Virus record (IMG/VR): IMGVR_UViG_3300031963_000020
Span: 84,341-148,340 of that record
Direction: 5' to 3' (one strand)
Source of the DNA: a virus
DNA: 64,000 nucleotides
The translations under genes were made by a program, and so were the position numbers. The notes beneath the pieces are model-generated. The model saw only the letters and a list, made by a program, of their open reading frames with translations, was not told where the DNA came from and did not search any database. Positions within the stretch are counted from its first letter, which is position 1, and every line of letters begins with the position of its first letter. Positions 491 to 25,447 of this stretch are shown here, one piece after another.

Positions 491-3400
491 ATGAGCTTAC
501 CAGATATTACTGTTGTTATACAAAAACCAGATGTAGTTGTCAGAAACTTAGGTGGTTCAGGATCATTTTTAAATGTCGCTGATTCCGCAGTAAGTTCTTC
601 TTATGCATTGACTGCAAGTTATGCATTAAATGGTGGTGGTGGAGGTGGTGGTGGAGATGGTGCAACAGGTCCAACTGGTGCAACTGGTCCTCGTGGTGCA
701 ACGGGTGTTGCAGGCTCTCCAGGTGGTGCAACGGGACCAACAGGTCCATCAGGTAGTCAAGGTGCAACAGGTATTCAAGGTTTAACAGGTGCACAAGGTG
801 CAACAGGTGTACAAGGTACCACAGGTCCTACTGGTGCGCAAGGACCAACTGGTAGCACTGGTCCACAAGGTATTCAAGGTGTCACAGGTCCAACTGGTGC
901 AATTGGTCCACAAGGTGTAACAGGTAGTACAGGACCACAAGGTATTCAAGGTGTTACTGGATCTACTGGTCCTATCGGTCCACAAGGTGTAACAGGTAGT
1001 ACAGGACCACAAGGAATCACGGGGCCAATAGGTGCAACTGGTCCGGAAGGTCCAACAGGTGCATCTGGTCCAACTGGTAGTACAGGTCCTACGGGTATTC
1101 AAGGTATTCAAGGACCAACTGGTAGTACAGGTCCGCAAGGTGATACAGGTCCACAAGGTTCAATTGGTCCAATAGGCCCAACAGGTCCAACTGGTAGCAC
1201 AGGTCCACAAGGACCACAAGGTGATATTGGTATTACTGGTGCAACAGGTATCCAAGGACCAACAGGGTCAACAGGACCGCAAGGTATCCAAGGTGTCACA
1301 GGTCCAACAGGTCCAATTGGTCCTGGATTAAATATTAGTGGTAGTTTACCAGATACGGGTAGCCTTCCTCCATCGGCGCCAACTGGTTCTGCATTTATTA
1401 TTGGTCAAGATTTATGGGTATATAATGGAACTTCTTGGGTAGACGTTGGTGATATCTACGGACCATCGGGTTCTACAGGCCCAACAGGTCCACAAGGTAC
1501 CACAGGTCCAACAGGCCCAATAGGTCCACAAGGTGTAACAGGCAGTACAGGCCCAACAGGACCAGAAGGCCCAACAGGTGCATCTGGTCCATCTGGTAGT
1601 GTTGGTCCACAAGGTCCAGTCGGTCCAATAGGTCCAACAGGTCCAACTGGTAGTACAGGTCCACAAGGACCAGAAGGTAACCAAGGAGAAACAGGTCCAA
1701 CAGGTGTACAAGGTGCAACAGGTATTCAAGGGCCAACTGGTAGTACAGGTCCACAAGGTATAACAGGTCCAACAGGACCAATTGGTGTAACTGGACCAAC
1801 AGGTGTTGCAGGACCAACGGGTTCAACAGGTCCAGCAGGTACTGCTGGACCAACAGGTAGCACAGGTCCAATTGGTCCAGAAGGACCAACGGGTAGTACA
1901 GGACCAACAGGTCCACAAGGTGTAACAGGTAGTACAGGTCCAGTAGGTTTACAAGGTGTTACTGGTTCTACAGGCCCAACAGGTCCACAAGGTGTAACAG
2001 GCTCAGAAGGTGCAACTGGTCCAATTGGTGTTACTGGTGCAACTGGTGTTACAGGTTCCACAGGTCCAACAGGTCCAGTAGGTCCAACAGGTAGCACAGG
2101 TCCAACAGGTCCACAAGGAACCACGGGTCCAACTGGTGCAACTGGTTTACCTGGTGACATCTATTCTACAACCAGTAGCACATCACTTTCTATCGGAACT
2201 GGTTCAAAAACATTAACTATTGCAACGGGACTTGCATATAGTATTGGTCAATCTGTTATTATCGCATTCGATAATAGTAACAAAATGGAAGGTAGTGTTA
2301 CCTCATACGATAGTGGAACAGGTCAATTAGTAGCTAATATTACAACGGCTACTGGTTCGGGTACATACACAGCATGGCAAGTAAGTTTGGCAGGTGCACC
2401 AGGACCAGCAGGTGTTACAGGTCCAACTGGTCCTGCAGGTCCAATTATTGCAGGACTCGTCAGTAGTTCTGCACAATACCCAGGATGGGTCACTAGTTCC
2501 GCACAAATTGATTATAACGCAATCACTAATAAGTTGAGTGGTGTAATATCCTCCTCAACTCAGTTTAATGCATTAACTGGTACATCTGCCTCATATTCAG
2601 CTACCGCATCGTTGTCTACAGCAGTAAGTGGTGGAACAGAAGATTATATACCACTTTGGTCATCAGCAAATACACTTACACGTAGTAGATTATACCAAAC
2701 TGGTTCTAGTATTATATTTGGTGGAACGACATTCTATGATGAAACCGCACCAGATATCTTTGGCTTGTACGGTGGTATAACAGACTCATTTAATTTAATC
2801 ACTGCGCACGCAATAATTGACAACTACTTACAAATAAATGTTCGTAACTTAAGTACAGGTTCTTCTGCATCATCAGATATAGTTGCGGTTAAGAGACTAG
2901 GAACAGAAACATCTGGCTTCATTGATATGGGTATCAATGATGACAATTATGTTGGTACGGAAATTTATGATGTTGCGGGTGATGCATACCTTTATACAGT
3001 AGGTGGAAATTTAGTAGTAGGTTCTGCAAGTGATACAGGAAGTGTAGTATTATTTACTGGCGGTGATACTCCATCGGATAAAAAAGTAGAATTACGAGCA
3101 AATAATTTACACGACATCACTGGTAGTCTTACAGCAACACAAGGATTTACTGGTTCGTTATCTGGTATAGCAACGACCGCATCATTTGCAACAGCAGTTA
3201 GCGGTGGAACTACAAACTATATTCCATTCTTTAATACAGCAAACACGTTATTTAGAAGTAGATTATATCAAACTGGTTCTAGTATTATATTTGGTGGAAC
3301 TACATTCTTTGACGAAACCGCACCAGATATCTTTGGTTTATATGGTGGTCTAACAAATTCATATAATTTAATCACTGCACACGCAACAATTAACAATTAC

Positions 3401-6319
3401 TTACAAATCAATGTTCGTAACTTAAGTACAGGTTCTTCTGTATCGTCTGACATAGTTGCAGTAACACCATTAGGTACAGAAGATTTTGGTTACATTGATA
3501 TGGGTATCAATAGTGATAACTACGTTGGTAATAGAATTTATGATTTACCAGGAGACGGTTATCTGTATACCACAGGTAGTAATTTAGTAGTTGGTACATC
3601 AACCGCAAATAGTAACGTTACTATTTTCGCAGGTGGTGACACTTACGCCAATCGTAAGTTAACATTAAAAGCAAGTAATCAACACGAAATAACAGGTAGT
3701 GTAAATATCAGTGGTAGTATATTACCATCAAATGATTCTGTATTTGACCTAGGTTCACCATCATTAAAGTTTAGAAGTTTATATCTTTCTGGTTCTACTT
3801 TATATCTTGGCACGCTCGCAATCTCTGATAATAATGGTACATTATCTATAACACCATCGGGGTCATCGACTCTTTCACCTGTATCTGGTGCATTTACTGG
3901 GTCGTTCCTTGGTAATTTGATCGGAAATGCTAATACAGCAACAACAGCATCGTTTGCAACCACAGCATCATTTGCACTAAATGCACAAAACGTACCACTC
4001 GGTACAGTATCAAGTTCAGCACAATATCCTGGTTGGGTCACAAGTTCTGCGCAAATTGATTATAATAGTATACAAAATAAGTTAAGTGGTGTAATATCTT
4101 CATCAACACAATTTAACTCATTAAGTGGTACATCAGCATCATTTGCAACAACCGCAAGTTATGTAGCAGGTGCAGCAAGTGACTGGGCATCATTAGCAAA
4201 TAAACCAGCAGATATCGTAAGTAGTTCTACCCAAGTCAAGGCGTTCTTACCTGGTGGCACTGTAAGTGCATCGGCACAATATCCTGGTTGGGTAACCGCA
4301 TCATCACAAATTGATTATAATAATATTACCAACAAATTATCTGGTGTAGTTTCCGCATCAGCACAAGTAGTACCATTACTTCCTGGTGGAACCGTTTCAA
4401 GTTCAGCACAATACCCAGGATGGGTCACTAGTTCCGCACAAATTGTGGTGCAAAATACCACTGGTATTGGTGCGTTAGCAACAACTGGTTCAAATACATT
4501 TGTTGGTAATCAAGTAATTAGTGGTTCATTAACTACCACCGCAGATACAATGACCTTCAATGGGTCGATGGCCGTATCGGGAACACTTTCATTAACTGGT
4601 AGTTTAAATGTATTAAACGGTGGATTTACTGGTTCATTAACGGGTAGTGCAACTACAGCAACATCGGCGTCATTTGCAACTACCGCAAGCGCAGCAACCA
4701 GTATAACATTTATACCAGCAACGTCATCATTTGCATTAACAGCAAGTTATGTTCCTGGTGCAGCAAGTGATTGGAATTCTGTAGCAAATAAACCAGCAGA
4801 TTTGGTCAGTAGTTCTACCCAAGTCAAGGCGTTCTTACCTGGTGGAACTGTTTCAAGTTCCGTACAATACCCAGGATGGGTAACCGCATCAAGTCAAATT
4901 GACTATAACTCAATTCAAAATAAGTTAAGTGATGTTGTATCAAGTAGTGCACAAGTTCAACCACTACTTCCTAACGGAACAGTATCAAGTTCCGCACAAT
5001 ACCCAGGATGGGTAACCGCATCAAGTCAAATAGAATTAAATAGTATTACAGGAACCACATTTGCAACAGCAAACTTTACTTTCCCACAAAACTTAACTGT
5101 CGCTGGAACACTTACCGCTCAAGAAATACAAACCGAATACGTAACATCATCTATTATTTACGAATCTGGTTCAACTAAGTTCGGTGATACAGCAGACGAT
5201 ACACATCAATTTACAGGTTCATTAAGCGTTCTTGGAACAATTAGTGGTGGATTGGTATTACCAGCAGGAACTGTAACAGCATCATCACAAATTGATTATA
5301 ACTTAATTCAAAATAAATTAAGTGGTGTGGTAAGTAGTTCATCACAAATTCAACCACTACTTCCAGCAGGAACAGTATCAAGTTCTGGTCAAGTAGATGT
5401 TCGTAACACAACTGGTATTTCAACACTTGCAACTACTGGTTCAAACACATTTACCGCAACACAAACAATAATTGGAAACGTATTCTTAAGTTCATCGTTC
5501 CCATTAGTTTATAATAACGATAACACTAACAATATGTTGTTTGGGTTCTTTGATGGTAGCTCCATTTACGGTGCATATTATCAAACATTTGGAAATAACT
5601 ACACGGCACTAAATCAACGTGGTGGTGCAGAGTTTGTATATGATATTAGAAATAATAGTGGTGCAAACTTCCATATCGCATCATTTAATGGTGCAACTTG
5701 GACTGAAAAGTTTAGAGTAGATGATAACGGAGCACACGTAACTGGTTCATTGGTATCAACTGGTGGTATTACTGGTTCATTACTTGGAACAGCAAGTTTC
5801 GCAACTACAGCTTCATTTGCATTAGCAACCGCAGGAACCGTAGAAAATGCAAATACAGCATCATATGTAGCATATACAAATATTGATGGTAAACCAACAC
5901 TAGTATCTGCATCATCACAAATAGATTACAATTCTATTACGAATAAGTTGAGTGGTGTATACAGTAGTTCGGCATTCGCATCACCAAACCAAGGTACTGT
6001 AAGATTAACATTAAATGGTGTTCAGTTAACTGACGTTGATTTGGGTGTACAAACATCTGATACCCCAACATTTGCTGGAGTAAGTAGTTCAAATCATATC
6101 ACTCCAACCGCAGATAATACTTATAACTTGGGTGCACCTGATAAGAGATGGGCAAACATATACACGGGTGACTTAATATTATCTAATGAAGGTTCTTCAG
6201 GTAATACCGTAGATGGAACAACAGGTAACTGGACTATTCAAGAAGGTGAAGAACATCTATACATTATCAATAACAAGTCTGGTAAGAAGTTTAGATTTAT
6301 GTTATCGGAGATTAACTAA
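491..6319 (+). CDS. Giant tail/collar fibre protein (1942 aa) with collagen G-X-Y region, duplicated 191-aa domain and [10 protein letters not shown] repeats
   Basis: About 500 aa of GPT/GAT/GPQ triplets; C-terminal GDLILSNE...[31 protein letters not shown] domain typical of large myophage fibres. Confidence 0.75.
656..2156 (+). repeat. Collagen-like (Gly-X-Y)n coding repeat with one short interruption
   Basis: 9-nt periodic ggt-ccN-acN pattern; translation [10 protein letters not shown]... Confidence 0.9.
2621..3720 (+). repeat. Tandem duplication of a 573-nt (191-aa) domain inside the fibre gene
   Basis: AVSGGT..YIP...[31 protein letters not shown]...[15 protein letters not shown] begins at 2621 and again at 3194. 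Confidence 0.85.
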
Positions 6320-9300
6320 TGCCAATTATAGCAGGTCAGATTACAGGTTCAGCACTTAGTGGTTCGTTAAATTATACGTTCCTATCTAATATTCCTTCTG
6401 GAATAGTATCTGGAGCTGCCCAAGTAGCCGCAAATCTACCAGCAGGGACAGTATCAAGTTCTGGTCAAGTAGATTATAACTCAATAACAAATAAACTGTC
6501 TGGTGTTGTTTCTTCGTCAACGCAAATTCAACCATTATTACCTGATGGAACAGTTAGTGCATCAAATCAAGTAGATATTACAGCAACTACCAACTACTCG
6601 ACATTTAGTTCATCGTTGGCAACAGTTGATGCAGGTCAAACCACTCGTATTGATAATCTAGCAAGTTTGACCAGTTCGTATGCAATTAACGCAACTATTC
6701 AAGGCCAACTTGCTGGAGTTGCATCAAGCAGTGCACAAGTAAAAGCATACTTACCAGCAGACACAGTATCAAGTTCTGGTCAAGTAGATATTACCGCAAC
6801 TAGTGGTTATTCAACCTTTAGTTCATCAATTGCAACCAAAAACGATACACAAGACGTATCTATCGGTGCATTAAATGCAGCAACCAGTTCATACGCAATT
6901 AACGCAACTATTCAAGGACAACTTGCTGGTGTTGTTTCTTCTTCTACACAAGTTAAACCATTACTTCCTGGTGGAACTGTATCAAGTTCCGCACAATATC
7001 CTGGTTGGGTCACTGCGTCATCACAAATTGATGTACGTAATACTACAGGTATTGCAACAATTGCAACTACAGGATCAAACACATTTAATGGTACTCAAAC
7101 CGTTACAGGTAGTTTATTTACTAGTGGGTCAAATAGTTTAGTAGGAAGCACTACGTTATCTGGTAGTTTAGTTGTCTCTGGTGCAGCAATTACCTCGACT
7201 CCAAATATTCAAATTTACGGAGATACAGAATTTACTGGATATGCAAAGTTTAACCCAGTCACCAGTAATATTGATACCTCAATTTCCGCATCCTACATTT
7301 ATGTTAGTGGGTCAACCCAAGATTTATATTTCTCTCAAAATAGTGCTGGATATAATAACGTTACTCGTTTACGTTGGTTAGAAAGTAACCTCTACACGGG
7401 TCTATTAAAGGGTGGAATACTAACAACAACAACAGGATCTACCACGTTTAATATCAGTGCAGGTGAAGGTATTGTTGTAACTCTTAACGCATCAACAACC
7501 CAAGACCCATATCCAACAATTAAGTTGGTTCGATGGGACGCAAAAACCAACGTTCCTATTACGTTTTCGGGTTCAGCAAAGATTACCTACGTTGGATTAG
7601 ATGTTGCAGGTAATGTTATACAACAAGTTGTTCCTTGGGGTAGTACCGACATCAATCAATTTGATACCCAAATCAATTTAGGTGTTATTTTACATTCAAG
7701 TGCATCAATATCAACAGGAGCATATAACGCTCCACAAATTTCATATGGAGCTCCGCAAAAGGCGGACGACTTCTTTAGATCATTTGGTCCACTAAAAGTT
7801 TCTGGTCACACCTTACAAGCAAGTGGTAGTAGCCCATCACTTAGTATTAAAAAGACCGCTGGTACATCATATCGTGAAGGGTCAAATTATGCAAATAATC
7901 CAAACCATCCCAACACGGTCACAGAAGAAAGTGATATTACAATATCTAAGATATATCGTTATTATATCTCAGGATCAACTCCTGTTATTGATACGGGTGC
8001 TAGTGGATCAGGATATCCCACTCTCGATAACCAAAACCGCGTTGATACAGCAACGGGGTTATTAACATCAATTGGTTTAAGTAATTGGTCTATTCAACGC
8101 GTATTCTGGGTTCCAGGGTCACCAACCAACGCGTTTATTGTCTATTATGGTAACACCGCATACAGCACACTACTCAATGCAGTTAACGCAATTAATACGG
8201 AACCATTCACGGAAGCACCAGATACGGCAGCTAATGCTGTATTCATCGGATACATCGTAATTCAAGGTGGTAGTAATCGTGACTTACTAAACGCGACGGA
8301 TTGTACTATTATTCAAGCTGGATTGTTCCGTAACATTGCTGGTGTTGGATCGGGTGGAACACAACCAGTAGCAACCACGTTAGCAGGATTATCTGATGTC
8401 GGTATTAGTAGTCCAGCTATTGGTGACTTGTTGGTATATACTGGGGCAACGTGGAATAATACAAAGTCATTAAATGGTAGTTATTCACTTACTGGTAGTT
8501 TAGCAACAAATGATGGTATTACGGCAATAACAATTAATGCAACAGCAGTATCCGCATCACTTTCTGGTAGCGGTGCTGGAGTATTTGGCGTCAACTATAA
8601 TACCTTATCAAATATTCCAGCAGGTATCGTCAGTAGTTCAACACAAGTTCAACCACTACTTCCTGGAGGAACAGTAAGTAGCTCAGCACAATATCCAGGA
8701 TGGGTCACGAGTTCAGCACAAATTGATATTACCGCAACAACTGGATATTCTACCTTTAGTTCATCACTAGCCACCGTAGATGCTGGCCAAACCACTCGCA
8801 TCGATAACTTGGCAAGTCAAACAAGTTCCTACGCAATCAACTCAACAATACAATCGCAACTTGCTGGTGTAGTATCAAGTTCCACACAAGTTAAACCACT
8901 TCTTCCTGATGGAACTGTTTCCTCATCAGCACAATACCCAGGATGGGTCACTGCATCATCACAAATAGATTATAATAATATTACTAACAAGTTAAGTGGT
9001 GTTGTAAGTAGTTCTGCACAAGTAGTACCATTACTTCCTGGTGGGACAGTATCAAGTTCTGGTCAAGTTAGTTTAACTGCCACCTCAGAATACTCTACAT
9101 TTAGTTCATCAATTGCAACTAAAAATGATTTGCAAGATGTTTCTATCAACGCACTGAACGCAGCAACTGGTTCATATGCAATTAACGCAACAATACAAGG
9201 ACAACTTGCTGGTGTCGTATCATCGTCGGCTCAAGTTAAACCATTACTTCCTGGTGGAACGGTATCATCATCTGGACAAGTAGACATCACAGCAACAACC

Positions 9301-16635: not shown

Positions 16636-18279
16636 ATGACGTTTAAATTTTTTCCGTTCGGTGTACCAACTACTAGTTCGTTTGCAATAGGAGTCGGAGT
16701 AACAGCTACCGCATCTATTGCAATTAATAGTGGTTCTGCGTTCTCTACGGCGTCATACGCACTGGGTGGGTCCACGGGTGCCACAGGTCCAAGTGGTCCG
16801 CAAGGAGCAACAGGTCCAACAGGTCCAACGGGTCCAACAGGCATTTCTGGATCAACTGGTGTTTTGGGTACTTCTGGTTCAACAGGACCACAAACGTCAG
16901 GGTCAACAGGTCCGACTGGACCAAGTGGTATTACTGGAGCAACAGGTCCAACAGGACCAACTGGTATTACGGGTTCTACGGGTGTAATAGGTATTACAGG
17001 ACCATCTGGTATTCGTGGTGCAACAGGTGCAACTGGAGCAACAGGTCCAACAGGCCCAACAGGTAGTGTTGGTATAACTGCTGGTATCATAGGTGTATCA
17101 GGTGTTACAGGCCCAACTGGTTCATCTGGTCCAACTGGTGTACAAGGAAGCACGGGTCCAACTGGTGTGGGGCCAACTGGAGCAACAGGTGCAACGGGTC
17201 CATCTGGTTCAGCAGGACCAACAGGACCAGTGGGACCAACAGGAGCAACTGGTGCAATCGGACCATCTGGATCTTCTGGTCCAAATACATTCGGAATAGT
17301 TGGTATAACTGGAGCAACTGGTCCTACTGGTGTTATCGGACCAACGGGACCACAAGGAAACGCTGGTCGAGCTGTATTTTTCATAACAGGATCATGTAAT
17401 CAAACACATTCCGATATCACCGTTCCTCACAGTGACGTTGCAGCAAGTCATACTGATATCGCAGCAGCACACACAGATACTACCATTAATGCATCACATA
17501 GTGACATTGTTACCACAACACCAGCATCACATACAGATAATACTACACCATTCGTAAATACGACTATTAACGCATCACATAGTGACACAACAATTAATGC
17601 ATCACATAGTGATATTGCGCATAGTAATATTACAATTAACGCCGCACATACTGATAATACCACACCATTTAATAATATCGCATTTACTAATATTGCAAAA
17701 TCACATACGGATATTTCACACAGCAATATATCACATACGAATATCGGAGCAGCACATACAGATAATACTACACCATTTAATAATATCGCGTTTAGTAATA
17801 TTGCATTCACAAATACCACTATACCATTTAGTAACATAGGATTTAGTAATTCGTATACTCCACATTCAAACATTGCTAAAGGTGCAGTTCATAAAGACGA
17901 TTACGGTCCACCAGCACATACAAATAGTACAACACCACATAGTAATATTGCATTCTCAAACACAGGATTCTCTAACTCGTATACTCCACATACAAACGTG
18001 GGTCATACGGATATTGCGTTCTCTAATACAGGATTTAGTAATAGTTATACTCCACATACTAATATTGGTTCAGCTCACACCAACACTACAATCAACGCAT
18101 CACACACAGATAATTACACGGCACATCAAAACGTAGCGCATGGAGATATACCGTTCGTGAATAGTTATACACCGGCACAATGTTCGCAATGTCCTGGTGG
18201 AGATCCGTCTGAATGTGATTCGTTCTGTGAATGTTATCCAAACTGTGGTTGCTTCGGTAATACGTGCATCGGTATATAA
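16636..18279 (+). CDS. Collagen + 38 x [HF]-x-[DN] repeat + 8-Cys tip protein (zipper chain C)
   Basis: MTFKFFPFG leader; G-X-Y to about aa 244; repeat array aa 258-509; C-terminus CSQC...CDSFCEC..NCGC....C. Confidence 0.85.
17407..18162 (+). repeat. [HF]-x-[DN] motif array (38 motifs, spacings 5/7/9/11 aa)
   Basis: Hand-parsed from translation ([21 protein letters not shown] ... HGDIP FVN). Confidence 0.9.
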
Positions 18280-18305: not shown

Positions 18306-19082
18306 ATGCCAGGTCCAACACATACAAATATAGGCCACTCCGATATAGCGTTTGAGAATGTCTACGCTGCGCATACTGATTTTACACAAAATCCGGCACA
18401 CACTGACAATACCACACCATTTAATAATATTGCAGCAGCTCATACCAATATCGCTCATAGTAATCAGGCATTTCTTAATACTTCATTTAGTAATATAGCA
18501 AAATCACACACCAATGTATCACATACAAATATTGGGCATACAGACGGTACGGCAGCACATACAGACAACTATTCACCAGCATCGCATTTAGATAATACTA
18601 GTGCACACTCAAATATCGCAGCAGCTCATACAAATATTGCACATAGTAATATAGCAACATCACACACAGATATATCTCACTCAAATATATCTCATACTAA
18701 CATCGGTGCATCACACACTGACAATACCACACCATTTAACAATATTGCGTTTAGTAATATTGGGTTCGTAAACACCACTATTCCACATACTAATATTGGT
18801 CACACTAATATAGGTGCAGCGCATTCAGATAATACAACACCAGCAGATCACAGCGATATCGCATTTAGTAATATTACGATTAACGCAAGTCACACGGATA
18901 TTACAATCAACGCAAGTCACACGGATATTGCAGCATCACATACCGATACTACCATTAACGCATCACACACGAATATAGTAAGTACCACTCCAGCTTCACA
19001 TACCGACAGTACAACACCATTTACAAATAGTACTACACCACACTCAAATGTTGCGGCCGCTCACAGTAACGCATTCCTATAA
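18306..19082 (+). CDS. Pure [HF]-x-[DN] repeat protein, 38 motifs (zipper chain D, mirror partner of 16636)
   Basis: Almost entirely HTN/HTD/HSN/FSN units; AGGGA SD-like element upstream. Confidence 0.85.
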   Translation: MPGPTHTNIGHSDIAFENVYAAHTDFTQNPAHTDNTTPFNNIAAAHTNIAHSNQAFLNTSFSNIAKSHTNVSHTNIGHTDGTAAHTDNYSPASHLDNTSAHSNIAAAHTNIAHSNIATSHTDISHSNISHTNIGASHTDNTTPFNNIAFSNIGFVNTTIPHTNIGHTNIGAAHSDNTTPADHSDIAFSNITINASHTDITINASHTDIAASHTDTTINASHTNIVSTTPASHTDSTTPFTNSTTPHSNVAAAHSNAFL

Positions 19083-19088
19083 TACACT

Positions 19089-19952
19089 ATGTCGCAATTT
19101 TTTCCACTAGGTACACCAACAACTGCAAGTACAGCACTTATCAGTAGTTTAGCATTTACCGCAACGTATGCTGTGAATGTGAATGTGTTGACAGCATCAT
19201 ATGGTCCTGGACCAACTGGACCACAAGGTGATAAAGGACCAACAGGACCACAAGGTGCAACTGGATTGGCAGGGTCAGGTTCTACAGGACCAACGGGCGC
19301 AACAGGTCCAACTGGGCTAACTAGTTCAGGTCCAACAGGTCCAACAGGACCGCAAGGTGTAATCGGTATTACTGGTATTACAGGCCCAACAGGTGTCACA
19401 GGTTCTACAGGCCCAACAGGTCCAATAGGAATTACTGGTGTAATTGGTGTTACAGGTATTTCTGGTGTAACTGGTATTGCTTCATTTACTTCGGGTTCCA
19501 CAGGCGCTACTGGGCCAACTGGAGCAACAGGTGCTACTGGTGTGGTGGGTATTACTGGTGCAACTGGTATTATTGGAATCACAGGACCAACAGGATTGAC
19601 TAATTTGGTGGGCATTACAGGTCCAACAGGTCCAATAGGATTACCAACCACGGGTTCTACAGGTCCAAGTGGTCCACAAGGAGCAACTGGTGTTGTAGGT
19701 ACTGGTGGTGTTTCTGCAGGAGCGGCGGCATCTGGAGTCATCGGTATTACGGGTATTACTGGTGTACAAGGTACCACAGGACCGCAAGGAAGTCGTGGTG
19801 TGGACGCCGAATGTCCAGCAGGATTTGTAACCTGTACGGAAGGGGCTCCGTCATCGGGGTCAAATACATATACAAACCCAAATAGTAGTATATATTCTGT
19901 GGTTTGTGCCGCAAGACCAGTAGGTTGTTTAGGAACATTTACGTGTGTATAA
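19089..19952 (+). CDS. Collagen-like protein with FFP leader and 5-Cys C-terminal domain
   Basis: MSQFFPLG leader; G-X-Y to about aa 237; ECPAGFVTC...VVC....GC....TCV. Confidence 0.8.
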
Positions 19953-20024: not shown

Positions 20025-21218
20025 ATGGCTAAAGCACCTGGTAGTATTTGGGTAGATGGTGAAACCTTTAGATTTATTGACGCAACTGGAAACGAGTACT
20101 ATTACACTGGTACTGCGGGGTCTAGTCCTGCGGGAGCTAAGGCTGGTTCAATTTGGGTAGACGGAAATGATTTTCATTATATTTCTGCTACTGGTGTTGA
20201 CCGTACAATTGCATACACCGATTTGGGTGTAGCAGCGGGATCAAAACCAGGTTCAGTATGGGTGCAAACCACATTCTGGCAATGGATATCATCGGCAGGA
20301 AACGCTCGTCGTGGTCACACCGACGTAACAGCAGCACACACCGACAATACCACCCCAGCATCTCACACAGATATTGCATTCGTTAATACTACAATTAACG
20401 CGGCACACACAGATACTACAATCAACGCAAGCCATACAGATATAGCAAAAGCACACACGGATAACACAACACCAAATAGTCACACGGACAACACTACTCC
20501 GTTCAATAATATTGCGTTCGTTAATACTACAATCAATGCCGCTCACACGGATAATACAACGAACGCAAGCCATACAGATATAGCAAAAGCACACACGGAT
20601 AACACAACACCAAATAGTCATACTAACAGCTATACTCCACATAGTAATGTCGCACACACCAATATTGGTGCAGCGCACACGGACAACACTACTCCGTTTA
20701 ATAATATCGCATTCACTAACACCTATATTGGTAACAGTCACACCAACAGTTATACTCCACACAGTAATGTCGCACACACCAATATTGGTGCAGCGCACAC
20801 GGACAACACTACTCCGTTTAATAATATAGCATTTACCAATTCATATACAGGTAATAATCACACTAACAATTACACACCACACACCAATATCGGTCACAGT
20901 AATATCGGTCATACTAATATCGGATTTAGTAACATAGCATTTAGTAATATTGGATTTACCAATACAACTATCAATGCATCACACACAAATATCAGTCATA
21001 GTAATATTGGTGTATCGCATACAAATATCGGTCATAGTAATGTTGGATTTAGTAATTCGTATACTGGACACACAAACATTGCACATAGTAATATAGGCGT
21101 ATCGCATACAAATATTGGACATAGTAATGTTGGATTTAGTAATTCGTATACAGGATTTGTAAATTCTTACACACCACAAAATCACACAAATTCGTATCAG
21201 GGTGGTCCTTCAGCCTAA
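20025..21218 (+). CDS. Three GS[IV]WV repeats + 44 x [HF]-x-[DN] repeat protein (zipper chain A)
   Basis: N-terminal 97 aa with PGSIWVDG/AGSIWVDG/PGSVWVQ; array from aa 98 (nt 20316). Confidence 0.85.
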   Translation: MAKAPGSIWVDGETFRFIDATGNEYYYTGTAGSSPAGAKAGSIWVDGNDFHYISATGVDRTIAYTDLGVAAGSKPGSVWVQTTFWQWISSAGNARRGHTDVTAAHTDNTTPASHTDIAFVNTTINAAHTDTTINASHTDIAKAHTDNTTPNSHTDNTTPFNNIAFVNTTINAAHTDNTTNASHTDIAKAHTDNTTPNSHTNSYTPHSNVAHTNIGAAHTDNTTPFNNIAFTNTYIGNSHTNSYTPHSNVAHTNIGAAHTDNTTPFNNIAFTNSYTGNNHTNNYTPHTNIGHSNIGHTNIGFSNIAFSNIGFTNTTINASHTNISHSNIGVSHTNIGHSNVGFSNSYTGHTNIAHSNIGVSHTNIGHSNVGFSNSYTGFVNSYTPQNHTNSYQGGPSA

Positions 21219-21238
21219 TGCATGAAAAGGAATAATAT

Positions 21239-22144
21239 ATGAATCATAGTAATTCGACAACACCAGCATCACATACGAACATCGGTGCATCACATACTAA
21301 TATCGGGTTTAGTAATGTGGGGTTTAGTAATAGTTATACTCCATTTTCAAATGTTGGGTTCGGTAATGTCAATGCATCACATACTGATATTGGATTTAGT
21401 AATGTGGGATTTGCAAATTCTTACACACCATTTAGTAATGTAGGGTTTTCCAATAGTTACACACCAAATTCACACACTAATATTGCACACAGCAATATTG
21501 GTCATAGTAATATTGGATTTAATAATATTGCGTTTAGTAATATCGCATTTGGTAATATTGCAAGAACACATACCGATAACACTACAAATGCAAGTCATAC
21601 CAACATTGGTCATACAAATATTGGTGCTGCACACACGAATAACACCACACCATTTAATAATATAGCGTTTAGTAATATTGCGAAGGCACACACAGATAAC
21701 ACTACAAATGCAAGTCATACCAATATCGCGCATACAAATATTGGTGCTGCACATACGGATAACACCACACCATTTAATAATATAGCGTTTAGTAATATTG
21801 CGAAGGCACATACGGACAATACTACAATTGCCTCACACACGGACAATTACACTCCGCATACAAACACTACAATTAATGCGGCACATACCGACAATACAAC
21901 ACCAGCATCACATACGGATATCGCACATACTAATATTGCTGCAGCACATACGGACAATACTACTAACGCAGCCCATACGGACAATTACACCCCGCATACA
22001 AACACTACAATTAATGCCGCACACACGGATACCACAATCAACGCAAGTCATACCGACATTGCGCACACTAATACAACAATTAATGCTGCACACACGGATA
22101 ACACCACACCACATAGCGACCAACCAGTATTTGTTGGTCCATAA
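21239..22144 (+). CDS. Pure [HF]-x-[DN] repeat protein, 44 motifs (zipper chain B, mirror partner of 20025)
   Basis: AAGGA SD at 21227-21231; ends HSDQPVFVGP. Confidence 0.85.
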   Translation: MNHSNSTTPASHTNIGASHTNIGFSNVGFSNSYTPFSNVGFGNVNASHTDIGFSNVGFANSYTPFSNVGFSNSYTPNSHTNIAHSNIGHSNIGFNNIAFSNIAFGNIARTHTDNTTNASHTNIGHTNIGAAHTNNTTPFNNIAFSNIAKAHTDNTTNASHTNIAHTNIGAAHTDNTTPFNNIAFSNIAKAHTDNTTIASHTDNYTPHTNTTINAAHTDNTTPASHTDIAHTNIAAAHTDNTTNAAHTDNYTPHTNTTINAAHTDTTINASHTDIAHTNTTINAAHTDNTTPHSDQPVFVGP

Positions 22145-22209: not shown

Positions 22210-23529
22210 ATGACTATTGAATTAGAACCAGTTGGTGTAGTATGTAATTTAAGTTGCCCGTATTGTTACGAACATCCCATGCGAGATGCGGGTAATTTCC
22301 GACATAAAACATATTCCGTTGAAAAAATGTTAGAAGGTCTTGCCAAAGAAGGTGGTAATTTTACCCTCTTTGGTGGTGAACCATTATTAACTGATATTGA
22401 CGATTTAGAAACTATTTTTAAGTGGGGGTTTGACCGATATGGATTTAATGGTATTCAAACAAATGGTGTTTTAATTACTGACCGCCACATAGAAATGTTT
22501 AAGAAGTACAGAGTTCACGTCGGAATATCACTTGATGGTCCTGACGAAATGAACGACACGCGTTGGGCAGGGTCATTAGAAAAGACCAGAGAGGCTACCC
22601 GCAAGTCATTTGAAGCTATTAAAAAGTGTCTTGACAACAAGCTCTCACTTGGTTTAATTATTACTATCCATAAGAAGAACGGATTACCAAAATATCGTGA
22701 ACGTTTCAAGGCATGGATTAAAGAACTTCAGTCGTGGGGTGTTGATGGAGCAAGACTTCATCCACTAGAGATTGACCATAGTTCTGTTGGTGAAACATTA
22801 GCTCTTACACCAGAACAAAATATTGAGTTCCTATTAGATATGTGGGACTTTGAAATCAGTGAACTAAATGTTCCTGGTAAGAAATCATTTCAGTTTGATA
22901 TCTTCCGTGACGTAGAATATATGTTGCGTGCAGACGATGCAAACGCAACCTGTACATTTATGACTTGTGACCCATATACCACGCATGCGGTGCAAGGTAT
23001 TGACTCGCAAGGTAATAAAGCAAACTGCGGTCGTGGTAACAAAGAAGGTATTAACTGGATTAAAGCCGATGTTGACGGATTTGAACGTCAGATGGCACTA
23101 TATAATACACCACAAGAACATGGTGGATGTCAGGGGTGCCGATTCTTTATTATGTGTAAGTCACACTGCCCAGGTACAGGTGCAGATATGGACTGGAGAA
23201 ATAGAACGGATACCTGTATGAATTGGAAGGTAGCGTTTAGTATCTATGAACGAATGATGGTTGAACGTGGTGAGATGCCATTATCTCTAGACCCAAAATT
23301 AAAGAGATATGAAGATATTTTGATGTATGGTTATAGTAGAGGTGCAGAACTTAGATTAGAACACATTAAAAAGTATCTTGACCCAAATATTGGATTTGAT
23401 ATTGAAAGATACATCCAATCATATTTGATGAACCAAGCTATGGGTGGACACAAGCCACACGCAGACCATACAGATGAAACAGGAAGATACGCATTAGAGT
23501 TTAAAGAGAAGTACGGATATTTACCTTAA
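22210..23529 (+). CDS. Radical SAM enzyme with SPASM-type C-terminal domain (peptide/protein maturase-like)
   Basis: CNLSCPYC (CxxxCxxC), FGGEPLL, QTNG, GISLDGP; C-terminal CTFMTC...NC...CQGCRFFIMCKSHCP...C; tail HADHTD. Confidence 0.92.
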   Translation: MTIELEPVGVVCNLSCPYCYEHPMRDAGNFRHKTYSVEKMLEGLAKEGGNFTLFGGEPLLTDIDDLETIFKWGFDRYGFNGIQTNGVLITDRHIEMFKKYRVHVGISLDGPDEMNDTRWAGSLEKTREATRKSFEAIKKCLDNKLSLGLIITIHKKNGLPKYRERFKAWIKELQSWGVDGARLHPLEIDHSSVGETLALTPEQNIEFLLDMWDFEISELNVPGKKSFQFDIFRDVEYMLRADDANATCTFMTCDPYTTHAVQGIDSQGNKANCGRGNKEGINWIKADVDGFERQMALYNTPQEHGGCQGCRFFIMCKSHCPGTGADMDWRNRTDTCMNWKVAFSIYERMMVERGEMPLSLDPKLKRYEDILMYGYSRGAELRLEHIKKYLDPNIGFDIERYIQSYLMNQAMGGHKPHADHTDETGRYALEFKEKYGYLP

Positions 23530-23547: not shown

Positions 23548-23946
23548 ATGATACCAGGATTACACGCAGACCACGTTGACACATCGGGTGCATATGGTCA
23601 AAAATTTGAAGTCGTAAAAGACTTGTTAGAAAAAGGAATGTTGAAAGAAATTCCAGAAGAATTCCGTGATAAAGGAAATACTTCCGAAGAAGTTCCGGTT
23701 ATTACTAATTCACAAACAGTTGTTGGTAATCAGCAATCGGGATGGGATATGTCTCGTGACCATGCCGACCACGTTGACGAAACTGGTCGTTATGCACAAT
23801 CGTATATGGAACGATTTGGTTCGGATTCCTTAAATAATAACGAAATTTCACAAGGAACTACAGAACAACAGCAAGATACTGGTAATTCTTGGAAGTCTTT
23901 CTTGAAGAAGATTATTGCAGAAGAAAAGAGTAAGTTGAAGGTTTAA
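23548..23946 (+). CDS. Small protein with two HADHVD motifs
   Basis: HADHVDTSGAYG and HADHVDETGRYA match the tail of the upstream radical SAM; GAGGA SD. Confidence 0.7.
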   Translation: MIPGLHADHVDTSGAYGQKFEVVKDLLEKGMLKEIPEEFRDKGNTSEEVPVITNSQTVVGNQQSGWDMSRDHADHVDETGRYAQSYMERFGSDSLNNNEISQGTTEQQQDTGNSWKSFLKKIIAEEKSKLKV

Positions 23947-23965: not shown

Positions 23966-25447
23966 ATGCAAAGAATAAAGCATGTCTTGCCTGATTGGAC
24001 TCGGGTGCAGTGGACTTCTATAGAAAATAGAAACAAATACGAACCTATCATTGCGTCTATCAATAACGCATGGAAACAGATTGAACGTATGTCGGTTGTT
24101 CACGATATTCGTCCATCTTCACTAGATATATTATCACCAGAAGAACTCATAAATTTAACTGCGGAATACGAAAAACATGGAGTACTCGTAGTTCCTATTG
24201 GTAAAGAAGGAAAAGCAGGAACTTACTCGTCTACAAGTACACCATATAATGGTGGTGATTACAATATTCGTGTTGTATTCACAAAGTCTGAAGCTATAGC
24301 AGATGAATGGTTTAATATCTGGCAAGCAGAACCCCGCATTCGTGACCGTGAGGCTGGTCGTTTACTTGGGTATCCTACCTGCTGCACCAATCATTTTATG
24401 AAGTATTGGGTAGACCAGGAATTTGTTGATACTACGTGGACGATGGCAGCGGAAAATATGCAGTTAAATGATGACGATGAAACGCATCGTACTATTCATA
24501 TTAAGGCAGATACTCCACCTGAAGCAAACATAATGTGGCGTTGGCAAGGTGTACGATTGGTATCACATCTTCCGTGTTCGTTTGATTGCAAGGCAACAGA
24601 AGAACTTGGTATGAAGATGGCAGAACTTGGTCGTACACTTGGGTTTGAAAAAGAAGTAAATTGGATATATGAATTACTTTCGTGGCCTGTTGAATGGTCA
24701 GCACTGCATGGTATCGCAGAAATCCGTACACCAATCAACAAGATTTCATCCAGAACTGATATGACCCCGTGGAAGTATGTGGTACAGAAGCATGCACACG
24801 AATATCCTATTGATGGTATGTCTGGTATAACGTATCCGTATAATCAAAAGAAAATTAAAGTCAAACCCGTCACAAAAACTATCTCGTTCGCTAAATCTCT
24901 TGAAGATACTTCCGTATGGGAAGAAAACGGATTTAGTAATAAGGAAGCTATGGATCACTTCCACCAAGTTATCATTGACGCAATCGGGGATATGAAATAT
25001 ATTCCTGGTGGTAATGTCCTCGACCTCGGTTGTGGAAATGGTGTCTTGTTAGGTCGTGTAGTTGGAGACAGATTTGATCTCATCCCACACGGTGTTGAAG
25101 CAGACCGTCAACGTTGTATGTCCGCAGCAACTACCATCCATTGGGGTGTCTTTACAATGGGTAGCATCTTTGACCTTAATACGTGGAAGGAAGATACATA
25201 TAGTTTGGTACTTTTGATGCCAGGCAGACTTCTTGAAACCACACGTGTAGTATCAGAACAAGTGCGTAAGCAACTCTATGACAAGACAGACCTTGTTCTT
25301 ATCAACCTAACTTGTGATTGGACACAACAATATGGCTCGATTGAGAATATTATGAAGGTCACAGGTCTTGACCAAGAATGGGAACCAGCAGGTAAGTTAA
25401 TCCATCGTCAAGATGATATGGCACAACTTTTCAAGCGTAAGGTGTAA
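23966..25447 (+). CDS. DUF483-like domain fused to class I SAM-dependent methyltransferase
   Basis: GRLLGYPTCCTNHF and HLPCSFDC in the N-terminal part; VLDLGCGNG motif I in the C-terminal part. Confidence 0.65.
   Translation: MQRIKHVLPDWTRVQWTSIENRNKYEPIIASINNAWKQIERMSVVHDIRPSSLDILSPEELINLTAEYEKHGVLVVPIGKEGKAGTYSSTSTPYNGGDYNIRVVFTKSEAIADEWFNIWQAEPRIRDREAGRLLGYPTCCTNHFMKYWVDQEFVDTTWTMAAENMQLNDDDETHRTIHIKADTPPEANIMWRWQGVRLVSHLPCSFDCKATEELGMKMAELGRTLGFEKEVNWIYELLSWPVEWSALHGIAEIRTPINKISSRTDMTPWKYVVQKHAHEYPIDGMSGITYPYNQKKIKVKPVTKTISFAKSLEDTSVWEENGFSNKEAMDHFHQVIIDAIGDMKYIPGGNVLDLGCGNGVLLGRVVGDRFDLIPHGVEADRQRCMSAATTIHWGVFTMGSIFDLNTWKEDTYSLVLLMPGRLLETTRVVSEQVRKQLYDKTDLVLINLTCDWTQQYGSIENIMKVTGLDQEWEPAGKLIHRQDDMAQLFKRKV

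Follow-up and report, generated by a model that had tools for sequence, protein, structure and literature searches.

Mirrored motif spacings in two adjacent phage genes point to a split out-and-back fibre hairpin

We analysed a stretch of 64,000 nucleotides (nt), referred to throughout as the window, which is the last 64 kb of the 148-kb virus record IMGVR_UViG_3300031963_000020 of IMG/VR. The record is estimated to be 72% complete. Among its genes are T4-like ones for replication (UvsX, DnaB, family B polymerase and ribonucleotide reductase, RNR), one for a baseplate hub and a block for collagen-like fibres. Our subject is a pair of adjacent open reading frames (ORFs) in the window, A (20025–21218, 397 residues) and B (21239–22144, 301 residues). 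Each encodes a long array of [HF]-x-[DN] motifs, here called beads, joined by short linkers, and the order of the spacings in one protein is the reverse of that in the other. The reading we prefer, to which we give a probability of roughly 0.8, is that A and B form a split out-and-back fibre hairpin whose register is coded in its linker lengths. The pair is made up of the following parts:

20025–20315, plus strand: N-terminal beta domain of A with three GSxWVxG..FHYxD..G repeats, the putative hairpin base; single-chain homologues have N-domains that align with it

20316–21218, plus strand: ascending array of A with 44 [HF]-x-[DN] beads by motif count, 2-, 4- or 6-residue linkers and the tip end ..QGGPSA

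21239–22144, plus strand: chain B, the descending array with 44 mirrored beads by motif count, a C-terminal HSDQPVFVGP shared with homologues, and a separate start codon preceded by the ribosome-binding site AAGGA

Mirrored arrays of A and B

Motifs were counted by regular expression on the translations. Protein B has 44 [HF]-x-[DN] matches, and protein A has 45, of which 44 lie within the array and one (FID, residues 17–19) within the N-terminal domain. An earlier note on this DNA, made by a model from the sequence alone, had given exactly 44 motifs for each protein, which is right for both arrays and for all of B but one short for the whole of A. As it had also stated, the span from first to last motif is 289 residues in the array of A and in that of B alike. 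Our script returned both of the spacing vectors it had listed by hand, the vector of A equalling the reversed vector of B at 43 of 43 positions. Expressed as 0-based motif starts, the positions in A and B add up to 388, a sum that is constant across all 44 motif pairs. The units comprise 17 of 5, 15 of 7 and 11 of 9 residues. That all spacings are odd had been taken to fit a beta geometry; the oddness holds throughout A/B but is no rule of the family, relatives using 6 and a Thermus phage 3–6.

The unit frequencies give a per-position match probability of 0.33, and hence ~1e-21 for 43 of 43; the number of distinct orderings possible for the A/B units is ~1e20. When the spacings of A were shuffled 1,000 times, a check that the earlier note had proposed, the best antiparallel register had a mean of 13.8 matches and a maximum of 23 out of 44. 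The best parallel register of A against B has only 20. Tandem duplications of equal length lie in mirrored order in the two genes, with periods of 138, 120 and 87 nt in A (20371–21155) and of 87, 120 and 138 nt in B (21286–22073).

We also looked for a DNA inverted repeat connecting genes A and B and found none, in agreement with the earlier note, so that such a repeat is ruled out as the origin of the mirror. Because no inverted repeat joins the genes, the mirror is confined to the lengths of the units.

A second pair, covariation and single-chain homologues

The window holds a second pair of array genes upstream of the first:

16636–18279, plus strand: chain C, a collagen-like Gly-X-Y stalk (Pfam Collagen, E = 8e-24) leading into a 38-bead ascending array, mirrored with D, and a Cys-rich C-terminal knob

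18306–19082, plus strand: chain D, with 38 beads mirrored with C, its putative descending partner

The C and D arrays have 38 beads per chain. Their spacings are mirrored at 34 of 37 positions, and 37 of the 38 motif pairs fall at constant sums, 22 at 509 and 15 at 511. Combined across pairs, as A/D or C/B, the chains mirror each other no better than by chance; hence each pair has its own barcode. Taken together, A, B, C and D carry 165 [HF]-x-[DN] motifs.

Relatives were sought in IMG/VR, the queries being A and the radical S-adenosylmethionine (SAM) protein encoded nearby, and 31 loci were fetched. The earlier note had suggested looking for the mirror in homologous pairs, and it is present in the cognate pairs of six loci despite their differing barcodes: in L007 at 44 of 45 rungs, in L008 at 47 of 48, in L009 at 38 of 39, and in L010, L011 and L015 at 30–31 of 32–33. 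The second pairs of L007 and L008 are mirrored as well (26–27 of 28–29 rungs), and neighbouring but non-cognate array genes of the relatives match at chance level. The edit distance between barcodes is 8–24 for homologous A's of different lineages but 0–2 for A against the reversed B of the same phage. Changes of unit in one gene are therefore met by a mirrored change in the partner. This is the same compensatory logic as is used to prove RNA stems, and it argues that A and B evolve together by compensatory changes.

This covariation bears directly on one alternative, that the mirror is a historical relic of a palindromic gene that split recently, its halves no longer pairing and each building its own homo-oligomeric fibre. 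Such a relic would account for a mirror in the window genome alone, and nothing specific speaks for it. Lineages whose barcodes have moved so far apart nevertheless keep their pairs mirrored, the two genes carry matched duplications of equal length, and B is without a base domain, having only the strand that would return to the domain of A. We hold this to be the least probable of the explanations considered here.

Single-chain forms are common among the metagenomic homologues of A, which end in H-x-D-Q-P-x-Y-V-G-P. Another single chain is Cumys_13 (gp13, 343 residues) of Thermus phage Cumys, encoded directly upstream of the Cumys radical SAM gene. It has the same three-repeat N-domain as A, followed by an HxD array and a C-terminus, HADQPVRG, that resembles the HSDQPVFVGP of B, and it is palindromic, with 19 motif pairs at a sum of 429 against a shuffle maximum of 15. 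Locus L022 encodes a fused form of 869 residues (2680–5289) with 104 motifs and 51 rungs at one constant sum, a perfect palindrome. In L012 a fused form of 288 residues (6001–6867) is again a perfect palindrome, and a 558-residue protein (3435–5111) unites collagen and hairpin in one chain, with 20 of 20 rungs, as the fused counterpart of C/D. The mirror thus appears in single fused genes too, where the earlier note had also proposed to look. The L022 protein keeps a strict 7,9,7,9 pattern in its base half and 6,7,6,7 in its distal half, and its palindrome is centred on YYFGFPEE.

The ends of the chains match in the same sense. Residues 1–97 of A align with the N-domains of P0003–P0010 and Cumys_13 as three GSxW..G..(F/L)HY(I/V)D repeats, and the C-terminal H-x-D-Q-P-x-(F/Y)-(V/I)-G-P is found in B, P0006, P0009, P0010, L022, L012 and many other representatives. 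A has the N-terminal domain of the family and B its C-terminal motif. Because close relatives and Cumys encode one chain with palindromic spacing, A/B would be a hairpin split at its tip, that is, one hairpin cut in two; the code would not have arisen between two genes of separate origin. The common form of the family is a single polypeptide; in the window the chain is divided into two ORFs at the tip, as it is in L007–L011, L015 and L025, and for this reason we file A/B as a split variant.

Could the split itself be spurious, A and B really being one gene broken by an assembly or sequencing error or read through by a programmed frameshift, and the product an ordinary single-chain hairpin? The two ORFs are 20 nt apart in different frames, and the single chains of L022 and L012 come from close relatives. 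The split recurs, however, at the same place, the tip, in six independent metagenomic contigs; these differ in sequence and have 17–457 nt between the two genes. It is found once more in C/D. Both B and D start with ATG, preceded by the Shine-Dalgarno-like AAGGA and AGGGA, respectively. Moreover, several relatives carry a Cys-rich knob on the free tip end of one chain, which is sensible only for separate chains: in L009–L011, as in chain C of the window, the ascending chain bears it C-terminally, and in L025 the descending chain bears it N-terminally. A single broken gene is thus very improbable, and two chains derived from one hairpin remain our preferred reading.

The knobs hold 8–10 Cys per ~35–75 residues (window 18170–18279, the C-terminus of A in L009–L011, and L025 1391–1620). 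A similar one lies at the C-terminus of the collagen-like ORF 19089–19952 (window 19800–19952). They may be receptor-binding tips.

The unnamed Cumys gp13-like HxD-array family comprises 630 clusters at 50% identity, as collected with an eight-homologue profile (E ≤ 1e-3) from 1.84 billion proteins. Distant single-chain homologues have bulges, for which a strict constant-sum test leaves too little room, and a chained hairpin score was used in its place. It exceeds z > 2 over shuffled spacings in 60% of the 134 scorable family representatives. GenBank phages gave no match by megablast or tblastn with the region and with B, and relatives there were reached with the radical SAM query only. In P0114 and P0150 (L040 7001–9613), from higher-GC siphovirus-like contigs, the HxD hairpin forms the C-terminal 250–300 residues of tail-tip proteins of 870–960 residues, and their genes stand right after the tape-measure and distal-tail genes and right before the radical SAM gene.

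Pfam, NCBIfam and PHROGs hold no family for A, B or D beyond sub-threshold pentapeptide matches and one unnamed PHROG; A and D have no PHROG match, and B has one weak match, to that unnamed family. The pentapeptide repeat models (PF01469 and PF13599) stay below their gathering thresholds: A scores 19.7 bits where 26.4 are required, and D 18.7 where 38 are. A pentapeptide beta-helix was rejected: the scores are too low, units of 5, 7 and 9 residues break the five-residue period, and the mirror would be left unexplained.

Fibre model, rungs and bead chemistry

In the model that we propose, a large tailed phage would carry an out-and-back fibre element with A as its outgoing and B as its returning strand. 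Ancestrally, and in what is still a common form, this element would be a single chain running from a three-repeat beta base through ascending beads, a turn and descending beads to the C-terminal H-x-D-Q-P-x-x-V-G-P, a strand that would return to the base domain. In the lineage of the window this chain would have been cut at the turn, giving two genes. The strands would lie antiparallel with bead i of A level with bead 45−i of B, and facing linkers (2, 4 or 6 residues) would need equal length on both strands, so that the irregular order of linker lengths would leave a single register. Antiparallel pairing in one register, which the earlier note had put forward, is strongly supported at the level of sequence by the C/D pair, the covariation in relatives and the palindromic single chains. 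Its figure of ~95 nm for an extended needle is kept as an upper-bound estimate only.

The contacts would be complementary in kind as well as in length, Phe facing His, Asp beads mostly facing Asp-containing His beads, and Pro linkers facing Pro-free ones. We aligned A to reversed B in six pairs, giving 225 rungs. FxN stands opposite HxN in 110 of these and HxD opposite HxD in 50, whereas FxN stands opposite FxN in 1 against ~19 expected (permutation p ~1e-3 in A/B alone); the same avoidance is seen in L007–L009. Four-residue linkers that contain Pro lie opposite Pro-free linkers in 71 cases and opposite Pro linkers in 0. In the clade of the window, Phe never precedes -x-Asp. If the register were shifted by two, to a sum of 390, the His of either strand would be opposite the Asp/Asn of the other and the rung would be locally two-fold symmetric. 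Such symmetry would explain why the motif reads N-to-C in both chains.

Structure prediction informs the base of the hairpin. The AlphaFold2 model of P0037 (42 sequences) has a predicted local distance difference test score (pLDDT) of 96–98 in the base domain, 87 in the last ten residues, which are modelled as a strand, and ~50 in the array; such values are in keeping with a chain end that comes back to the base domain. For single-chain P0006 (8 sequences) the pLDDT of the array is ~30. A complex prediction with three copies of A(92–190), three of B(200–301) and 4 Fe scored 0.00 without controls and says nothing either way about binding. When the models were used in fold searches (VIA wide, Foldseek PDB and ESM Atlas), weak rows alone came back, the best for the N-domain being the beta-prism II lectin LlpA at Z 4.1, and an ESM Atlas feature search gave scores of at most 0.80, which are leads only. 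Since the sister chain C opens with a collagen triple helix, which places this type of array in a trimer, the A/B assembly is likely to consist of three hairpins around one axis, with six strands, as the T4 gp37 needle has.

The topology of such a fibre has a precedent in what is structurally its nearest known counterpart, the needle of the T4 long tail fibre protein gp37 (D11, PDB 2XGF), a trimeric fibre tip whose chains run out and back, residues 882–1009 being inserted in D10 (PMC6957217). The D11 core has His layers, seven iron sites and the Phe F970, with steric complementarity that places G921 opposite F970 (PMC6957217). Its motif is H-x-H, whereas that of the window arrays is aromatic-x-Asp/Asn, and its seven HxH motifs (883, 915, 929 / 966, 980, 989, 998) interdigitate and are neither mirrored nor facing. 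The gp37 strands have ~64 residues against 289 in A/B and belong to a single chain, and gp37 goes with the chaperones gp38 and gp57A, not with a radical SAM enzyme. When PDB sequences were searched with A and with the family profile, no match was found at E ≤ 1. By these comparisons the gp37 needle appears to be an analogue of the window fibre and no detectable relative.

Downstream of B lie three further genes:

22210–23529, plus strand: radical SAM/SPASM-type enzyme (Pfam Radical_SAM, 1.4e-15), the presumed array maturase

23548–23946, plus strand: small ORF of 132 residues with two HADHVDxxGxY motifs, kept in all loci of the clade of the window

23966–25447, plus strand: DUF483 fused to a SAM-dependent methyltransferase (Pfam DUF483, 5e-6; MetW/MTS matches), the third member of the module

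In eight array contexts (the window, Cumys, L003, L005, L006, L040, L041 and L042), all of them within tail modules of contractile-type and lambda-like phages, a radical SAM gene lies downstream of the array gene in every case. The distance is zero or one gene in seven of the contexts and four genes in L006. A DUF483 or methyltransferase gene is present in six of the eight, the window and five of the other seven. The window enzyme is of the SPASM peptide/protein maturase type, though its scores stay under the cut-offs of all curated families, and it shares 45–51% identity with proteins encoded by Thermus phages phiLo, Cumys and phiMa. Its C-terminal tail (23440–23529) has HADHTDETGRYA, and the 23548–23946 ORF has two more copies of HADHVDxxGxY; all three are clade-wide (L007–L027), and the Thermus phage enzymes likewise end in HxD-rich tails. 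The tail may mimic a substrate bead, or the enzyme may act as a transient partner strand by docking on the array. Most likely, the radical SAM/SPASM enzyme and the DUF483-methyltransferase act on the beads.

A module of this kind has been described in Thermus phages Cumys and phiMa as an 'rSAM module' of Cumys_13, a radical SAM enzyme and a DUF483 protein (bioRxiv 10.1101/2024.08.14.607894). In literature searches on DUF483 and on tail fibres crosslinked by radical SAM enzymes, this paper was the only one found, and it contains no mention of the repeats or of their palindromic spacing. The Cumys module sits behind baseplate and tail-collar genes and is homologous to that of the window: its array protein has the three-repeat N-domain, the HxD beads and HADQP at the C-terminus, its radical SAM enzyme is 45% identical to that of the window, and the DUF483 gene comes next. 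Cumys_13 consists of one chain, spaced at 3–6 and nearly pure HxD, whereas the window system is split, much longer and Phe-x-Asn-rich, and has a second, collagen-borne pair.

What might the enzymes do to the beads? In 150 representatives, the only residues enriched two positions before the Asp/Asn of the arrays are His (3.9x), Phe (1.9x) and Tyr (1.6x). Triceptides, a class of peptides that are synthesized by ribosomes and modified after translation (RiPPs), are made by radical SAM/SPASM enzymes of the 3-CyFE type (HtkB, HaaB, XncB and OscB), which form three-residue cyclophanes (PMC11499958). Their substrates are defined by an aromatic-X-X3 pattern, in which the enzyme joins the ring to the C-beta of X3 (PMC11499958), and the array beads have this pattern. 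The systems are alike in accepting His or Phe at position 1, in motifs that are often repeated and in a substrate gene adjoining the radical SAM/SPASM gene (PMC11499958). Unlike triceptide precursors, the substrates of the window family would be virion proteins of 300–870 residues with up to 104 motifs and without a leader peptide, and they have a DUF483-methyltransferase partner. Since His is replaced by Phe or Tyr at position 1, ring chemistry is favoured, and we tentatively suggest, at somewhat below even odds, triceptide-like aromatic-to-C-beta crosslinking of the beads. More doubtful, though possible, is the fuller picture in which the radical SAM enzyme staples each aromatic-x-Asp/Asn bead or bridges facing beads to give a covalently reinforced 44-rung two-chain ladder with its register in the linker lengths.

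That HxD pairs with HxD favours metal or salt-bridge rungs instead. In a metal ladder, which rivals the crosslinks only and not the antiparallel pairing, each rung would be a metal site made by His and Asp from facing beads, with two His and two Asp per hairpin or three and three on a threefold axis, like the seven iron sites of gp37. Phe-x-Asn beads would be metal-free hydrophobic spacers, and the radical SAM enzyme would have another role or help in assembly only. The clustering of acidic residues where two His are present (50 HxD/HxD rungs, 110 FxN/HxN and no Phe-x-Asp) is consistent with such sites, as are the nearly pure HxD arrays of the Thermus phages. The gp37 core, with its His layers bearing iron and its Phe layers (PMC6957217), offers a parallel, but there the HxH motifs of the two strands interdigitate instead of facing. 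Phe and Tyr, which are unable to bind metal, substitute for His at position 1 across the family, and a dedicated radical SAM/SPASM enzyme with HxD tails accompanies the arrays, one that would be unneeded if the strands were held purely by metal. His/Asp metal rungs would be compatible with crosslinks, and we consider them rather unlikely.

Several points weigh against the hairpin and its proposed maturation. The support for A/B pairing is evolutionary and not physical. The array pLDDT of 30–50 gives no usable strand geometry, oligomer state or rise per residue, and the three-repeat N-domain could be a monomeric pseudo-trimer, which would make A/B one two-stranded ribbon and not a six-stranded needle. 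About 40% of the 134 representatives do not rise above shuffles at z > 2; this could mean that the mirror rule is not universal, and bulges, fragments or motif variants may be the cause. The radical SAM enzyme falls under the cut-off of every curated cyclophane-synthase model in NCBIfam, reaching 38–65 bits with the YhhB, AmcB, GrrM/OscB, FxsB and XyeB models against cut-offs of 310–450, and the anaerobic sulfatase maturase model scores higher. Finally, the only paper that names the module guessed at DNA modification and listed the array protein as 'unknown' (bioRxiv 10.1101/2024.08.14.607894).

Genome context and significance

Collagen-like phage fibres (PHROG 5073, 819 and 6320) match strongly to the Gly-X-Y stalks of C and of three neighbouring ORFs; these families describe the stalk only and leave the bead arrays uncovered. 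Elsewhere in the window, 491–6319 encodes a fibre protein of 1942 residues in which ~600 collagen-like Gly-X-Y residues are followed by many repeats of ~45 residues, with no Cys. PHROG tail-fibre matches to this protein run through its collagen part only. Long antisense ORFs lie over the repeat genes at 20289–20798, 21470–21811 and 19061–19777, all on the minus strand, and are most likely by-products of a repetitive, stop-poor composition and not genes.

The palindromic register rule, the split two-gene form with its compensatory covariation and the facing rules appear to be new, as we found them described nowhere. They would make the register of a long protein–protein interface readable from sequence, a signal that is familiar from RNA helices but very rare in proteins. 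An out-and-back topology can now be assigned to a large family, with its 630 clusters, that has no Pfam model and no solved structure and is AlphaFold-resistant, and a hairpin that may be split at its tip explains why some members of this family are encoded by one gene and others by two. The conserved radical SAM and DUF483 genes point to enzymatic maturation of a virion fibre, of which we found no report in the literature. Since A mismatches D and C mismatches B, the bead-and-linker code could find use as a scaffold that is programmable, with its length defined and its pairing specific. If true, the stapled ladder would be the first virion fibre to be crosslinked by an enzyme. It would also be a protein counterpart of base-paired strands, its two genes co-evolving through insertions and deletions that compensate for each other.

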